From assembly GCF_024223415.1 (NCBI RefSeq), contig NZ_CP100500.1: a stretch of DNA of 64,000 nt. One strand, 5' to 3'. Below, in pieces: positions 34,707-43,731 of the stretch. A model generated the notes under the pieces. It ran no database searches. It was given only the letters and a program-made list of their open reading frames with translations, and was not told the origin of the DNA. The DNA comes from Escherichia coli (lineage in GTDB: Bacteria > Pseudomonadota > Gammaproteobacteria > Enterobacterales > Enterobacteriaceae). Made by a program: the position numbers and the translations under genes. How positions within the stretch are numbered: position 1 is the stretch's first letter; each line of letters opens with the position of its first letter.

Positions 34707-37700
34707 ATGGGTAAAGGCAGCAGTAAGGGGCATACCCCGCGCGAAGCGAAGGACAACCTGAAGTCCACGCAGTTGCTGAGTGTGATCGATGTCATCAGCG
34801 AAGGGCCGATACAAGGACCGGTGGATGGATTAAAAAGCGTGCTGCTGAACGGTACGCCGGTGCTGGACAGTGAGGGGAATACCAATATATCCGGCGTCAC
34901 GGTGGTATTCCGGGCCGGTGAGCAGGAGCAGACGCCGCCGGAGGGATTTGAATCCTCCGGCTCCGAGACGGTGCTGGGTACGGAAGTGAAGTACGACACG
35001 CCGATTACCCGGACCATCACGTCGGCAAACATCGACCGTCTGCGCCTGACCTTCGGTGTGCAGGCACTGGTGGAAACCACCTCAAAGGGGGACCGGAATC
35101 CGTCGGAAGTCCGCCTGCTGGTTCAGATACAGCGTAACGGTCGCTGGTTAACGGAAAAAGACATCACCATTAAGGGAAAAACCACTTCACAGTATCTGGC
35201 TTCGGTGGTGGTGGATAACCTGCCGCCGCGCCCGTTCAGTATCCGGATGCGCAGGATGACACCGGACAGCACCACAGACCAGCTGCAGAACAAAACGCTC
35301 TGGTCGTCATACACCGAAATCATCGATGTGAAACAGTGCTACCCGAACACGGCACTGGTCGGTGTGCAGGTGGATTCGGAGGAGTTCGGCAGCCAGCAGG
35401 TGAGCCGTAATTATCATTTTCGCGGGCGCATTCTGCAGGTGCCGTCGAACTATAACCCGCAGACGCGGCAATACAGCGGTATCTGGGACGGAACGTTTAA
35501 ACCGGCATACAGCGATAACCCGGCCTGGTGTCTGTGGGATATGCTGACCCACCCGCGCTACGGCATGGGGAAACGTGTTGGCGCAGCGGATGTGGACAAA
35601 TGGGCGCTGTATGTCATCGGCCAGTACTGCGACCAGTCGGTGCCGGACGGCTCTGGTGGCACGGAGCCGCGCATCACCTGTAATGCCTGGCTGACCAGGC
35701 AGCGTAAGGCGTGGGATGTGCTCAGTGATTTCTGCTCGGCGATGCGCTGTATGCCGGTATGGAACGGGCAGACGCTGACGTTCGTGCAGGACCGACCGTC
35801 GGATAAGGTGTGGACCTATAACCGCAGTAATGTGGTGATGCCGGATGATGGCGCGCCGTTCCGCTACAGCTTCAGCGCCCTGAAGGACCGCCATAATGCC
35901 GTTGAGGTGAACTGGAGTGACCCGGATAACGGCCAGGAGACGGCGACAGAGCTTGTGGAGGACACGCAGGCCATTGCCCGTTACGGTCGTAACGTCACGA
36001 AGATGGATGCCTTTGGCTGTACCAGCCGGGGGCAGGCACACCGCGCCGGGCTGTGGCTGATTAAAACAGAACTGCTGGAGACGCAGACCGTGGATTTCAG
36101 CGTGGGTGCTGAAGGGCTTCGCCATGTACCGGGCGATGTCATTGAAATCTGTGATGATGACTATGCCGGTATCAGCACCGGTGGTCGTGTGCTGGCGGTG
36201 AACAGCCAGACCCGGACGCTGACGCTCGACCGTGAAATCACGCTGCCATCCTCCGGTACCACGCTGATAAGTCTGGTTGACGGAAGTGGCAATCCGGTCA
36301 GCGTGGAGGTTCAGTCCGTCACCGACGGCGTGAAGGTAAAAGTGAGCCGGGTTCCTGACGGCGTTGCCGAGTACAGCGTGTGGGGGCTGAAGCTGCCGAC
36401 GCTGCGCCAGCGCCTGTTCCGCTGCGTGAGTATCCGTGAGAACGACGACGGCACGTATGCCATCACTGCCGTGCAGCATGTACCGGAAAAAGAGGCCATC
36501 GTGGATAACGGGGCGCACTTTGACGGCGACCAGAGCGGAACGGTGAATGGTGTCACGCCGCCAGCGGTGCAGCACCTGACCGCAGAAGTCACCGCAGACA
36601 GCGGGGAATATCAGGTGCTGGCGCGCTGGGACACGCCGAAGGTGGTGAAGGGCGTGAGCTTCCTGCTTCGCCTGACCGTGGCCGCGGATGACGGCAGTGA
36701 GCGGCTGGTCAGCACGGCCCGGACGACGGAAACCACATACCGCTTCAGGCAGCTGGCGCCGGGGAACTACAGGCTGACAGTCCGGGCAGTAAATTCCCGG
36801 GGGCAGCAGGGAGACCCGGCGTCGGTATCGTTCCGGATTGCCGCACCGGCAGCGCCGTCGCGGATTGAGCTGACGCCGGGCTATTTTCAGATAACCGCCA
36901 CGCCGCATCTTGCCGTTTATGATCCGACGGTACAGTTTGAGTTCTGGTTTTCGGAAAAGCGGATTACCGATATCAGGCAGGTTGAAACCACAGCCCGTTA
37001 TCTTGGTACCGGAAGTCAGTGGCTTGTCTCCGGCCAGAATATTAAACCTGGCCATGATTATTACTTTTATATCCGCAGTGTTAACACTGTCGGTAAATCG
37101 GCATTCGTGGAGGCAGTCGGTCGGGCGAGTAATGATCCTGCCGGTTACCTTAATTTTTTCAGGGGGGCGATAAATAAAACGCATCTGGGACGGGAGATCA
37201 ATGAACGCATTGATGCCTCTGCACTGCGCACTGAAGTTGAGCAACTGGAGAATGAGATTAACCGCGAAATGACGCAGCTGGAGAAAGATGTGAGGCAGCG
37301 TGCGGAGCGTGATATCGCCGAGGTGACGAAAAAAATCACGGCGTCTGAAAACAGCATAACGGAACTGGTGGCGAAAAAGAGCGGTGAACAGTCGCTGGCC
37401 ATTGCGAAAGTCGACAGGAAAGTTGACAGCGTGAGCAGTGAAATCCGGCAGACAGTGAGCAGGAGCACGGAGGAGAACAGCCGACAGATAGCGCAGGTCA
37501 GGCAGTATGTTGATGATAAAAGTGCGCAAATAAGTACTGTTGTGGCGAAAAAGAGCGCTGAACAGTCAATGGCCATTGCGGAAGTTGACAGAAAAGTTGA
37601 CAGGATGGGAAGCGAAATCCGGCAGACAGTAAGCAGGAGCACGGAGGAGAACAGCCGACAGATAGCGCAGATCAGACAGTATGTTGATGATAAGGGAAGT

Positions 37701-38216
37701 CAGATCAAACAGAGCACGGATAAAAAACTGGGATCCTGGAATGCCAGCATTGAGCAGATACAGAAAGTTCAGGAGGACACGCGCCGGAACCTGAACAGCA
37801 TGTGGGCTGTGAAGCTGCAGCAGACACGGGATGGACGTCTCTATATTGCAGGTATTGGTGCCGGAATCGAAAATACGTCTGACGGAATTCAGAGTCAGAT
37901 CCTGATGCAGGCAGATCGTATTGCGATGATTAACCCGGAAAATGGCAATACAACACCTTTGTTTGTGGCTCAGGGTGATCAGCTGTTCATGAATGATGTT
38001 TTCATGAAAAAACTGACCGTGGATTTTGCCAGAGTGACGGGAGATATCCGGTCAGATAATTTTCATTCCGGTAGTCCGGGGTGGCGTTTATCAAGAAACG
38101 GCAGCCTTGAAATTAACTCAGGAAGGCCCGGCGCAGGCCGCCTGTTTTTCAATGGCGAGCGAATCGACGTATATGACGATAACAATGTGTTAAGAGTACG
38201 ACTGGGGAGACTGTAA
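34707..38216 (+). CDS. J: Central tail fibre / host-specificity protein (lambda gpJ-like) with an internal ~174-bp tandem duplication (about 37368..37716) and a C-terminal region I cannot match to lambda J
   Basis: 1169-aa ORF in the lambda J position; tandem repeat read directly. Confidence 0.85.
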
Positions 38217-38476
38217 TGTTCGGAGTCCGGGTATGGCGCAAAGGGCGCCTTGTGACACATGAAATAAACCCAACAGGGGTGCTGGATGTGATCACTGAAG
38301 GGACGGGGCAGCGTTCTTATACTCCTTTGCAGGGCTGGCGTCTGGAAGTCTGTTCACCGGCCATTCTGATTAACGGTCAGGGAAGTCATACCAGTGCCAG
38401 TGTATCCGGCTGGACAGTGCACTATGCCAACACAAGCTGGCTAAGACCCGTGCTGGTCATGATAAGGGGGATCTGA
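38216..38476 (+). CDS. Hypothetical protein downstream of J
   Basis: 86-aa ORF, start overlapping the J stop. Confidence 0.4.
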   Translation: MFGVRVWRKGRLVTHEINPTGVLDVITEGTGQRSYTPLQGWRLEVCSPAILINGQGSHTSASVSGWTVHYANTSWLRPVLVMIRGI

Positions 38477-39138
38477 TGTTTGCACTTAAATTAACTGATG
38501 AGCGGGGGAGAGAATGGATATCACCTGTTGCGCCGCCACTGAACCTTGTGCGCCGTTTTCATTTCACACTGAGTGCGCGTGATGCGGTGATGCAGTTTAT
38601 CGACACCGGGGTGCCGACGAATTATCGTTGCGTGATTTTTATTAAACAGATAAGCGGTAATCAGTCCTTCCATGGTGAAATGGTTCAGCTTAACGGTACC
38701 TGGCAGTATGACATTTTCAGCGCTGGTACAGGGCAGGAGCCGGGCATGGAACAGGACAGCACATATGTTGTTTATGTTTTTGCCAACATGGTGAATGTAT
38801 GGCCGCAATGGGGAATACAGTTGTGCGACAGTCATGGCAGGGTGGTCTGGAACACGGAAATGCTGCCACTGGAAGTAAAAATGACGCGAATATGGGAAAA
38901 GGATGTACCGATCAGTGTGGGACATGATGTGGCCGTAATGCCGGGGTGTACCCAGTGGACGACAGTTCAGGAAGGGGAGAGTTATTACTGGTATACCGCC
39001 AGTTTTAATGCCAGAAACTCACAGTTATGGCGTCAGTCAACTTTTGCTGAAGATAACGTAGCGGCGCCCAATGATAATTCAGGTGTTGTTAATAACCTCT
39101 GTTATTACATAAATGCAGAAATTTATGATGCGTACTGA
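38476..39138 (+). CDS. Hypothetical protein downstream of J
   Basis: 220-aa ORF, translationally coupled to the upstream ORF. Confidence 0.45.
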   Translation: MFALKLTDERGREWISPVAPPLNLVRRFHFTLSARDAVMQFIDTGVPTNYRCVIFIKQISGNQSFHGEMVQLNGTWQYDIFSAGTGQEPGMEQDSTYVVYVFANMVNVWPQWGIQLCDSHGRVVWNTEMLPLEVKMTRIWEKDVPISVGHDVAVMPGCTQWTTVQEGESYYWYTASFNARNSQLWRQSTFAEDNVAAPNDNSGVVNNLCYYINAEIYDAY

Positions 39139-39159
39139 TAGTTATGTTGAGGGCATGTA

Positions 39160-39405
39160 ATGAAAATAATCGTCTGCACTTTTTTGCTGTTTCTTGTATC
39201 AGGTTGCGCGGGGTACCGTTCAGTTACGGAGAGAGTCCGGTGCACCGGTGTGCTGAGTCCCGGGGTTTTACAGCGAGCTTATACGGTAGATCTTACAGGG
39301 AAAATAGAAACGAAAAGCGGCACTGTGTATAAAGTATCAGCTCCGAGATTTTATGGTCAGTGGGTGAGTGAAGATATGTTTACGAAAGTTTCGTGCGTGA
39401 AGTAA
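39160..39405 (+). CDS. Small lipoprotein, Cor-like candidate (superinfection exclusion against FhuA-dependent phages)
   Basis: Signal peptide with lipobox (FLVSGC); ~80-aa lipoprotein between J and side tail fibre gene, the position cor occupies in phi80/N15/HK022-type phages as recalled. Confidence 0.4.
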   Translation: MKIIVCTFLLFLVSGCAGYRSVTERVRCTGVLSPGVLQRAYTVDLTGKIETKSGTVYKVSAPRFYGQWVSEDMFTKVSCVK

Positions 39406-39477
39406 TCATAAAAACACCCGATTGTAAATGAATGACGACGCCCGCAATTTTGCGGGATTATTTTTTATGGAGCGAGT

Positions 39478-41292
39478 ATGGCGGCTGTAAAAATTTCAGG
39501 CGTGCTGAGGGACGGAACCGGAAAACCGGTACCGGGATGCATTATTGAGCTGAAAGCGAAGAGAACCAGCGAGACAGTCATCGCCACGACAGTGGCTTAT
39601 GGCATGCCGGAAGAGACGGGGAGTTACAGTATGGATGTGGAGCCAGGAATATACAGGGTGACACTCAATACAGAAGGTTACCGTCCTTCGTATGTGGGAG
39701 ATATCGTGGTCAGGGAGGATTCTTCACCGGGAACACTGAATAAATTTCTGATGGAGATGGAAGATGCTCCTTATTATCCGAAGGCGTTGTCAGAGCTGGA
39801 GGCTGTGGTGCAGTCCATACTGCACAGAGCAGAGTCCGCGGCATCTGAGGCGGAGGAAGCCCGGAAACGAGCAGCATCTGCCCGGGGACCACGAGGAGAG
39901 AAAGGGGATACCGGCGCTCGTGGTGAAAGAGGCATTACCGGGCCACAGGGGCCAAAAGGTGAAACAGGAGCACGTGGCCCGGCAGGACCACAGGGACCAA
40001 AAGGTGAAACAGGTGAACGCGGTCCGGCAGGTCCACAGGGACTAAAGGGCGATACAGGTGAACGCGGCCCGGCAGGTCCACAGGGACCAAAGGGTGAAAC
40101 AGGTGCACGCGGCCCGGCAGGTCCACAGGGAGCAAAGGGCGAAACAGGTGAACGCGGCCCGGCAGGTCCACAGGGAGCAAAGGGCGAAACAGGTGCACGT
40201 GGTCCGGAAGGCCCTCAGGGTCTGAAGGGAGAAAAGGGTGAGCGAGGAGAAAAAGGCCCTAAGGGGGATAAAGGAGATCCGGGAGGTCCACAGGGACCAA
40301 AGGGGGATACAGGTGAACGCGGCCCGGCAGGTCCACAGGGATCAAAGGGCGATACAGGTGAACGTGGCCCGGCAGGTCCTCAGGGACCAAAGGGGGATAC
40401 AGGTGAACGTGGCCCGGAAGGTCCACAGGGAGCAAAGGGTGAAACAGGTGAACGCGGCCCGGCAGGACCACAGGGACCAAAAGGTGAAACAGGTGAACGC
40501 GGTCCGACAGGTCCACAGGGAGCAAAAGGTGAAACAGGAGCACGCGGTCCGGCAGGTCCTCAGGGACCAAGAGGAGAGTCAGCCCGTGGACAACTGCTGA
40601 ATGGTGATCTGAACCGACTGGGACGAGTGACCGATCAGGGTGATTATTATCAGCCATCAGACAGTGGGGCTACACGAGAAAATAATTATCCGATTCAGAG
40701 AGCGGGTTATCTTCAGGTAAGAGTTGGTGCATGGGGATATTGCCAGCATGAATATACAACCTGGAACCCACCACGAAAGTTCGTAAGAACTGTTACTGGT
40801 AATTTTACCGGTAATGGCCCCTGGTCTGAATGGAAAGAGCTGGGAGCCCAGGGGGAGCGTGGTCCACAGGGACCAAAAGGTGAAACAGGTGCACGCGGTC
40901 CGGCAGGTCCACAGGGACTAAAGGGCGAAACAGGTGCACGTGGCCTGGCAGGTCCTCGGGGGCCAAGAGGGTATACAGGTGAACGCGGCCCGGCAGGTCC
41001 ACAGGGGCCAAGAGGAGAAGCGGGGCGGCCAGCGAGCGTCGGAAGTGTTTATTCCGTGGGGTCTTATGTTCTGGGGATCATAGAACGAAATCATGAGATA
41101 ACAAATACCCGTCAAATACCCGGGTATCGTATCAGACAGGCCGTTATTGTGTCGTCGTCATCGGATAAACTTACAGATATCCGCTTTTTATTTGGCAATC
41201 CTATGCTTGGTACATGGATGTTATGCACAACTAACATGACGGTGAATAATATCAGTGGGACGATTTGGGGCCTGTTTCAGAGAATACTGTGA
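39478..41292 (+). CDS. stf: Side tail fibre protein (Stf-like N-terminus) with long collagen-like Gly-X-Y repeat region
   Basis: N-terminus [18 protein letters not shown] resembles lambda Stf; two blocks of GXY triplets ([19 protein letters not shown]...). Confidence 0.8.
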
Positions 41293-41307: not shown

Positions 41308-41883
41308 ATGAAGGTCGATAAAATCACGTCACCAGTGTGGGCTGACAGGGGTCATACGACCATAAACTGTATAGTGAAGTTTTCAGACGCGGAAACAGAA
41401 TGTGTATTTACAGCAAGTGCGGATGATCCTGAGTCTTACGGTCGTGAAATATTTGAAGCCTGCATAAGAGGTGATGCAGGGCCGGTAGGTGAGTACCGGG
41501 CAAATGATGATATGGCTGTGGAAGAAGCACGCAGGATGAAAAACGCGGAGATAAATGCCTGGCGTGATGCGATGGAGGCGTCAGGGTATGTTTTTGAGCA
41601 CAGAGGACGGAAATGGGATTATGGAAAGGAAACCATGACACGTCTTGGAATGTCGGCATCAGCGGCCAGAGGCGGTGTGTTGCCGGAAGGATTTTTCTGG
41701 ACGGACGCAGAGAATAATGATGTACCGATGACGGCAGATGAACTGATATCCCTGAGTGATGCTGCTGGTAAAGCGATGTTCAGGAAAGGCCTTGAAATAC
41801 ATATAAGGCAAAGGGAGATGAAAAAGGCAATAGCAGAACTGAGTGACAGTGAAACCATTCTGGCGTACAGGGTTGGATGGTGA
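41308..41883 (+). CDS. tfa: Tail fibre assembly/chaperone-like protein
   Basis: 191-aa ORF immediately after the fibre gene; assignment by position and weak similarity. Confidence 0.45.
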   Translation: MKVDKITSPVWADRGHTTINCIVKFSDAETECVFTASADDPESYGREIFEACIRGDAGPVGEYRANDDMAVEEARRMKNAEINAWRDAMEASGYVFEHRGRKWDYGKETMTRLGMSASAARGGVLPEGFFWTDAENNDVPMTADELISLSDAAGKAMFRKGLEIHIRQREMKKAIAELSDSETILAYRVGW

Positions 41884-42321: not shown

Positions 42322-43731
42322 ATGAAATTTATAATGGCAAAGAATGTATTGGCAATGGCGGTTACCGGTGCGCTGTTATGTTACTCTGTGGGGGTTATGG
42401 CAGAAGAGAGTTTTAATGTAGATGGATATGAGGTTACTCTGTATGATAATGGTGCGGCAGTAATATCAAAAGGTAATGATGTTAATCTTATTAATACTAT
42501 TACTGGAGCTAATACAGGGCGTATTGTCCCGAATGATTCTATTACGCGTGCTATATTAGCAGCTCCTGAGAATGCTAGGCATATTGTTGCTCAGGATTTG
42601 CTAACTTACCCCATCTACTCAGATGCATTAAAAGCCGAAAACATCAGAAATATAAAAGCAGAAGATATAAAGTCCATTGTTGATACAAAAGAATCACTAC
42701 AAAAAATAATCAAGCCAGAAAACAAGGATGATTATATCGCCGCTGTTAATGCTGGTGGTACCGCTGAGGATTTTATTAAAATTAGTAATACAACATCGGG
42801 ATTGTCATCATTGTATAAAAATGTAGTTGAAGGCCAGAATTTTGTTCTGGATTCATCAGGCCGAATCACTGCTGACGGAAGGGCTGACGGAAATGCTCAG
42901 ACAGTCCCTGTTAAAGAATTCGTCGTGGAGCTGGATAATCGTACCCGCAACCTTGGGGTTGAAGTGAAATCACAGGGAGACAGTCTGCGTGGTGAGATAG
43001 GTGGTGTATACAGAGATGCCCGTGCTCATACTGACAGTCAGGTCACAGCAGTACGTGATGAACTGAAGGCAGAGGGAGACAGTCTGCGCGGTGAGATAGG
43101 CGGTGTATACAGAGATGCCCGTGCTCATACTGACAGTCAGGTTACAGCAGTACGTGATGAACTCAGCAGGGATATTATTGCAGGCACATCGGCAGCGGTG
43201 GCGTATACGGATGCATCTTCTCTTGCTCTTCAGGATGAAATAAAAGAAAAAGCGGATGAAACAGTTCAGGTTTCCCGGGCTTATACAGATAAAAGTGTAC
43301 GGGATGCCCGTAAAGAAGCGAAAAGCCAGGCAGAACATCTCAGCGATGTGCTTGTGAAGAACAGGGCGCAGACGGATGCAGCAATAGCCTCAAATACAGC
43401 AGCGATAAGGAATAACAGTCATCGTCTGGATTTGACGGAAGCCTGGCAGAAGATGGCGACAGAGAGAATGAATAATATGCAGGAGCAGATTAAAGAGAAC
43501 CGGAAGGAGTTAAGGGAGAGTGCAGCCCAGAGCGCGGCACTGGCCGGTCTTTTCCAGCCATACAGTGTTGGAAAATTTAACGCGACAGCAGCCGTTGGTG
43601 GTTACCGTGATGAGCAGGCCATTGCGGTGGGCGTGGGCTACCGTTTCACAGAGAATGTGGCAGGAAAAGTTGCAGTTGCTGCAGGTGGGTCATCCGCATC
43701 GTGGAATGCTGGTGTGAATTTTGAGTTCTGA
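42322..43731 (+). CDS. Trimeric autotransporter adhesin-like protein (YadA-like C-terminal anchor); resembles prophage-encoded Eib immunoglobulin-binding proteins
   Basis: Signal peptide; coiled-coil stalk with 33-aa tandem repeat; C-terminal anchor [10 protein letters not shown] ... [20 protein letters not shown]. Confidence 0.7.

Follow-up and report, generated by a model that had tools for sequence, protein, structure and literature searches.

Phages phi80, N15, HK022 and T1, all of which use FhuA, carry directly after the tail-tip gene J a "cor cassette" of three genes (gp22, gp23 and Cor in N15; PHI80_22, PHI80_23 and cor in phi80). In N15 and phi80 (genes 21-25) the layout is J, gp22 (100 aa), gp23 (~225 aa), Cor (77-78 aa), a terminator and a tail fibre gene. 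This type of cassette has been described by Wietzorrek et al. 2006 (as cited in PMC13164509), in the BASEL paper (PMC8594841), by Matusiak et al. 2025 (PMC12309495), in the KanT1 paper (PMC13164509), and in bioRxiv 10.64898/2026.04.02.716166, and receptor specificity tracks the allelic variants of the locus (PMC8594841; bioRxiv 10.64898/2026.04.02.716166). Here we analyze a block of three genes at positions 38216-39405 of the window, the term used here for the whole 64,000-nucleotide stretch of Escherichia coli contig NZ_CP100500.1 that was analyzed. The block is a rare, divergent allele of this known module and not a new kind of system. It occupies the same place after J, each of its three genes is homologous to its counterpart in the cor cassette, and the order from J through the terminator to the tail fibre gene is the same.

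Other described systems share parts of this arrangement. BtuB-type loci of Drexlerviridae (Bas04 FritzSarasin, Bas06 KarlJaspers, and tonn) encode the same three protein families, but with all three genes on the other strand, convergent with J and headed by the lipoprotein gene, and with a J that ends in an extra TGxW. The Stx phages phi24B, 933W, and VT2-Sakai have the first two families, as orf63 and orf64, right after a gene with a J-type tip; they differ in their podovirus context, in carrying lom rather than a Cor-like lipoprotein gene, and in their reported use of BamA. Phage Oekolampad (Bas18), which targets LptDE (PDB 9RPT, 9RPS), follows the same logic of a receptor-binding protein (RBP) and a periplasmic exclusion lipoprotein (Rtp45-type) encoded beside J, although its RBP is 321 aa long, has no separate small partner, and recognizes a receptor that is not a TonB-dependent transporter. 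In the pb5/Llp pair of T5, pb5 is unrelated in sequence and much larger, and the genes are located elsewhere in the genome. The FhuA-type, BtuB-type and, structurally, LptD-type RBPs belong to one fold family. Receptor choice sets host range, cross-resistance between phages, and the nutrient transporter whose use a lysogen may forfeit. Genome-based prediction of receptors leans on few receptor-assigned alleles, and the window allele lies outside all of them, making it a concrete test case for such prediction, one that is partly missing from RefSeq annotation.

The tip of J and the three genes that follow

J (34707-38216, plus strand, 1169 aa) lies immediately 5' of the block. Over residues 1-836 it shares 93% identity with lambda J. 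Next come a 175-residue coiled-coil insert with a 174-bp tandem repeat (37368-37693) and residues 1012-1104, which correspond to lambda J 841-934 at 56% identity; the protein ends 65 residues later. A BLASTP comparison found no counterpart in the window J to lambda J 935-1132, the C-terminal 198 residues that include the LamB-binding domain. The distal tip (37740..38216, plus strand; residues ~1012-1169) is of T1/phi80 type: the Pfam family Phage_Tail_Tip matches residues 1015-1140, and the motif at its C-terminus can be aligned with the J termini of phi80, N15, HK022, and the BASEL small siphoviruses, as well as with the end of the Stx-phage needle. Judged by its sequence, the window J is a chimera of a lambda J body and a T1/phi80-type tip. 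Because the C-terminal 198 residues of lambda J are lacking, the phage very probably does not bind LamB through J, in agreement with the preliminary description, which had inferred a receptor other than LamB, and very probably uses a separately encoded RBP, as has been proposed for these phage groups (PMC8594841).

All compared J proteins of FhuA-type and BtuB-type loci end in ...G-R/K/E-L/I-T-G-x-F/W/Y. This TGx-aromatic tail is missing from the window J, from the YncD-type J (Bas10), and from the Stx needles, all of which terminate about four residues sooner (with ...GRL in the window and in a diverged copy of the locus, L017, treated below; ...GLF in Bas10). The tail may be a docking feature matched to the type of RBP.

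Three plus-strand open reading frames (ORFs) of 86, 220, and 81 aa fill the interval between J and the side fibre gene, the slot held by lom in lambda; both the ORFs (with about 80 aa for the last) and the slot had been recognized before. The first gene (38216-38476) begins with an ATG that overlaps the J stop codon (TAATG), and the second (38476-39138) overlaps the stop of the first in the same manner (TGATG). The third (39160-39405) follows after a gap of 21 nt, compared with ~110 nt in the phi80/N15-type cassette, is preceded by a ribosome-binding site, GAGGG, 8 nt 5' of its start, and encodes a lipobox within the N-terminal sequence MKIIVCTFLLFLVSGC. A terminator scan places an intrinsic terminator at 39441-39466 on the plus strand (CCCGCAATTTTGCGGG, then a T run), which ends the cassette; N15 and phi80 have an annotated terminator at the same position after cor.

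Annotation of this allele is incomplete. In the identical region of NZ_OY754357 (L001 6553-7771, equivalent to window positions 38252-39470), RefSeq calls the first gene from an internal GTG, giving a 74 aa protein of GVG-type, and does not annotate the Cor-like lipoprotein gene. The match tables of the other carrier genomes list two hypothetical proteins only. The N-terminal sequence M-F/Y-G-V/I-R/Q-V-W-R-K-G is kept in the window and in L017 (MYGIQVWRKG in the latter), and because of this conservation the upstream start, proposed in the preliminary description, is the right one.

The 86-aa protein, left unassigned before together with the 220-aa protein, matches phrog_557, named "outer membrane protein", in the PHROGs collection (E 3e-4). 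It aligns end to end with the corresponding proteins of BtuB-type and other loci, with 13 invariant columns. In an hhalign profile-profile comparison its family matches the gp22 family of N15, phi80, and BASEL phages with a probability of 96.9% (E 1.8e-10); the gp22 link to phi80 and N15 is seen by profile comparison only. The similarities in sequence identify it as a member of the small (~75-105 aa) gp22 family encoded directly after J. A published idea, that the small protein corresponds to the C-terminal immunoglobulin-like domain of lambda J, yielded no sequence signal when the two were compared.

A homology search of the kind that the preliminary description had proposed for the 220-aa protein makes it a member of the gp23 family. 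The protein matches phrog_425, named "membrane associated protein", with E 3.3e-27, residues 1-218 aligning to profile positions 3-224 of 224, and it aligns over its full length with FhuA-type gp23, with BtuB-type proteins, and with Stx-phage orf64. Motifs common to the alignment occur at the N-terminus, in the center (YxF-N, G-I-x-x-Y/F-N/D-x-x-G, M-x-P-L, and A-V-x-P), and at the C-terminus (Y-I-N-x-x-x-Y-D); identity to gp23 of phi80 and N15 is ~21-24%. Pfam reported nothing above threshold for any of the three cassette proteins, and a sequence search of the PDB returned no match. The protein is, however, structurally related to the solved LptD-type RBP, the product of a gene in the same slot beside J and an experimentally proven RBP of this locus type (PMC12685063). 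Sequence similarity between the two is non-significant, and a gp23-family profile gave only short, non-significant matches to LptD-type and YncD-type RBPs; because sequence profiles miss it, the link is a purely structural one. No other piece of evidence speaks as strongly as this match of the modeled fold for regarding the 220-aa protein, which is soluble and all-beta, as an RBP of the "hand-like" kind.

The 81-aa product of the last gene is Cor-like, as had been proposed. Its PHROGs matches are phrog_27799 and phrog_1119 (Cor, E 8e-7). The NCBIfam Cor model NF047972, the sole family match, aligns over the full length with E 1.2e-6; the score of 28.4 bits is below the equivalog cut-off of 31, compared with 140.9 bits for phi80 Cor. 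Failure to reach the cut-off may explain why the annotation pipeline left the gene unnamed or uncalled. The best named matches are phi80 Cor (E 3e-8), N15 Cor (9e-6), and the Bas05 protein (2e-4), and an alignment with phi80 Cor, a check the preliminary description had put forward, runs over the full length at 31-32% identity; for Cor proteins of the phi80/N15-type cassette as a group, identity is 26-31%. The N-terminus reads MKIIVCTFLLFLVSG-C with Ala at +2, the lipobox expected of Cor. In the Lol pathway, Ala at +2 implies sorting to the outer membrane. Residues G15 and C16 are invariant or nearly so in Cor family alignments, and in an alignment of 54 Cor sequences the window protein has the invariant C16, C28, F74, and C79 as well as the near-invariant F64 and W68. 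A Foldseek search of the PDB with the lipoprotein model found nothing at E < 0.1.

A diverged copy of the whole cassette, with gene order and lengths kept, occurs in other E. coli prophages (L016-L018). Compared with L017 at the amino acid level, the 86-aa protein is 63% identical from end to end, the 220-aa protein 52%, and the lipoprotein 48%. Across the three genes the proportion of nonsynonymous differences (pN) is 0.29-0.37 and that of synonymous differences (pS) 0.61-0.76; for the 86-aa gene the values are 0.29 and 0.70. Because order and length are kept and pN lies well below pS, the three genes must be viewed as real. They are under purifying selection and have diverged together as a unit.

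The block is thus quite probably a divergent module for host recognition and self-exclusion, of the kind found in phi80, N15, HK022, T1, and the small BASEL siphoviruses and described as the "cor cassette" or as the RBP locus downstream of gpJ. In such a module, the J, 86-aa, and 220-aa genes would be translated as one coupled late unit. The trimeric J would end in a tip without a receptor-binding domain of its own, and one copy of the 220-aa protein would cap that tip and bind the terminal receptor in the outer membrane, with the 86-aa protein, a putative soluble adaptor of the tail tip, helping to mount or stabilize it. This capping geometry is suggested by AlphaFold-Multimer models of homologues, which dock the hand-like protein to the tip of the spike and also to FhuA or BamA (PMC12309495), and by extra density at the needle tip of phi24B (bioRxiv 10.64898/2026.04.10.717836). 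The lipoprotein, a presumed superinfection exclusion factor, would reach the inner leaflet of the outer membrane and bind the periplasmic side of the receptor, so that neither this phage nor others dependent on the same receptor could use it. Blocking from the periplasmic side has been demonstrated for two pairs, Llp with FhuA and Rtp45 with LptD, and has been proposed for Cor (PMC13164509; bioRxiv 10.64898/2026.03.26.714494; PMC12685063).

Which receptor

For comparison we used the receptor-assigned loci of the BASEL collection (S5 table), namely FhuA (Bas03, Bas05, and Bas15), BtuB (Bas04 and Bas06), YncD (Bas10), and LptD (Bas02 and Bas18), and added phi80 and N15 to the FhuA set. The FhuA, BtuB, and YncD loci are built alike: each encodes a small protein and one of ~200-220 aa and has a third gene, also small, which in the FhuA and BtuB loci encodes a lipobox. 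Members of one receptor family are expected to share more than 30% identity at more than 99% coverage (bioRxiv 10.64898/2026.04.02.716166), and the 220-aa protein reaches at most 26% identity to the FhuA-type and BtuB-type proteins compared. Its matches to BtuB-type proteins and to Stx orf64 have E values of ~1e-12 to 1e-13, and those to FhuA-type proteins 6e-8 and weaker; no significant match to YncD-type or LptD-type proteins was found. Among receptor-assigned phages, those of BtuB type give the best scores for both the 220-aa and the 86-aa protein, at just 22-26% identity. In a neighbor-joining tree, the window protein and two relatives of ~50% identity form a deep branch of their own, and the FhuA clade is the most distant.

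The lipoprotein separates the receptors no better. Its mature form is 24-31% identical to FhuA-type Cor and 22-26% to the BtuB-type proteins, while phi80 Cor is itself 28-30% identical to the BtuB-type proteins and lambdoid and T1-like FhuA Cor proteins share 33-40%. We considered reading the receptor from levels of similarity or from the tree and rejected this, the FhuA-type and BtuB-type lipoproteins being as alike mutually as either is to that of the window. The preliminary description had taken a Cor-like lipoprotein to imply use of FhuA. That step does not hold: the window lipoprotein, which scores below the NCBIfam Cor cut-off, resembles FhuA-type Cor no more closely than phi80 Cor resembles the BtuB-type proteins, and being Cor-like does not identify the receptor. 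For prediction from genomes the rule is that "Cor-like" must not be equated with FhuA.

The receptor is most likely a TonB-dependent transporter. Other barrels are possible because proteins related by fold have LptD as their receptor or, by inference in the Stx phages, BamA (PMC12309495). We hold it as a tentative but appreciable possibility that the allele represents a further receptor class of the gp22/gp23/Cor module, directed at an outer membrane protein other than FhuA, BtuB, YncD, LptD, or BamA, such as a further TonB-dependent transporter, with a matched periplasmic blocker, and moving as a unit between J and needle tips.

Another candidate is FhuA, which the similarities allow as a possible though rather unlikely receptor, another TonB-dependent transporter being at least as likely; the 220-aa protein would then bind FhuA, and the lipoprotein would be a functional Cor that excludes T1, phi80, and T5. 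The lipoprotein's top named matches are indeed FhuA-type Cor proteins, its one family match is to NCBIfam Cor, the gene order is that of FhuA-dependent lambdoid phages, and cassettes with both upstream genes have so far been tied mainly to FhuA phages (PMC13164509). The level of Cor identity cannot separate receptors, however, and the lipoprotein of L017 has no match to NF047972 at all. The 220-aa protein scores higher against BtuB-type and Stx proteins than against FhuA-type gp23, is farthest from the FhuA clade in the tree, and falls under the 30% level with every receptor-assigned family (bioRxiv 10.64898/2026.04.02.716166), and the window J lacks the TGxW tail common to the FhuA-type and BtuB-type J proteins compared.

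One observation bears on the identity rule itself. The orf64-type protein of VT2-Sakai (L006 6001-6618), present also in phi24B and 933W, shares 44% identity from end to end with the RBP of Bas04 (L009 4382-4996) and tonn. Bas04 and tonn depend on BtuB, yet the published receptor of phi24B is BamA, in conflict with a simple rule that equates identity above 30% with a shared receptor. Either specificity shifts within 44% identity or one of the receptor assignments needs re-examination.

Other possible roles for the block

Two points weigh against a module for recognition and exclusion. Whereas cor of phi80 and N15 is transcribed separately, scanning for promoters revealed no convincing one for the lipoprotein gene; the best candidate seen by eye, TTATTA-N16-TATGAT at 39102-39129, agrees at 8 of 12 positions and lies below the threshold of the tool, so that expression of the lipoprotein from the prophage, as for cor, is putative. 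Relatives of the 220-aa protein at 46-48% identity, furthermore, occur without a Cor-like gene (L027 4099-5139; L028 and L029 4720-5918), and because of these the pairing of RBP and lipoprotein is not obligatory.

The second of these points is shared by an improbable alternative, in which the lipoprotein is a lysogenic-conversion factor, acting for example in nutrient uptake or on the envelope, and has only an ancestral SH3-like fold in common with Cor. The SH3-like barrel of the lipoprotein is generic, matching many unrelated structures, and the score below the Cor equivalog cut-off would suit this account as well. Against it stand homology to the Cor family over the full length with the conserved cysteines, the conserved place right after the RBP gene, and co-divergence with that gene. 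In LptD, FhuA, and BtuB loci, moreover, the lipoproteins encoded at the corresponding position are exclusion factors, demonstrated or inferred (PMC12685063, PMC13164509).

It is highly unlikely that the three proteins form an envelope exclusion or moron cassette of the lysogen and are not virion parts, a reading offered in PMC13164509 and favored by the PHROG names of phrog_557 and phrog_425 and by a position in the slot of the lambda moron lom, because signal peptides and hydrophobic segments are absent from both the 86-aa and the 220-aa protein, starts overlap the preceding stops from J onward as in late structural genes, the same pair lies 3' of the needle gene in Stx podoviruses, where the extra tip density is seen, and membrane-affinity estimates speak against insertion (PMC12309495). 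Without such segments in either upstream protein, the "membrane" names in PHROGs are misleading, as Matusiak et al. found likewise for their examples (PMC12309495).

Distribution, relatives and flanking genes

The allele is rare. The DNA of the block is present at 99.7% identity or more in nine of 5426 complete E. coli genomes. A megablast search of 50,697 phage records did not find the cassette, matches being confined to the lambda-like part of J, and in a set of 2.9 million viral contigs just five contain the allele or a relative of 46-48% identity. Among 1.84 billion cluster representatives, the 220-aa protein has 41 matches at E < 1e-3; the closest is 50% identical and the next 31%, none of them receptor-assigned. 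Apart from the protein itself, a word-indexed protein search returned a single relative, 52% identical.

The allele occurs in avian and human E. coli prophages, its diverged copy in Stx-type ones. The latter (L017 3476-5960; also L016 and L018) belongs to podovirus prophages resembling 933W and VT2-Sakai, where it lies 3' of a 421-aa needle gene in place of orf63, orf64, and lom, with hok/gef next. Some Stx-type prophages, that is, hold in this slot a copy whose RBP is 52% identical to that of the window, together with its lipoprotein, which means that the module is exchanged between the tips of siphoviruses and podoviruses.

What follows the first two genes varies among the remaining relatives. 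In L027, an ORF for a hok/gef-type toxin follows the 86-aa/220-aa-type pair. In L028 and L029 the pair lies ~2 kb from a J-like gene, and an 83-aa membrane/coiled-coil protein is encoded next. In two distant relatives, with RBPs 31-32% identical to that of the window, the third gene encodes a secreted protein of 85-98 aa that is not Cor-like (L019 4696-4953, minus strand; L020 4760-5056, plus strand; L021 1556-1852). These proteins consist of a Sec-type signal peptide and a C-terminal TonB domain, recognized by Pfam TonB_C with scores of 36 and 51 bits (cut-off, 24.6). They could represent another type of exclusion, competing for the TonB box of a TonB-dependent receptor; we found no literature describing a TonB_C third gene of this kind. 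The third gene is absent in three other members of the same clade.

Beyond the terminator, the side tail fibre gene (39478-41292) encodes collagen-like (G-x-y) repeats of 45 bp, about 14 copies at 39943-40570 and a further 3.5 copies at 40861-41019, and is followed by a side-fibre assembly gene (41308-41883). A 469-aa ORF at 42322-43731 contains a 99-bp tandem repeat; its counterpart in L001 is annotated by RefSeq as YadA-like family, and the ORF may be prophage cargo.

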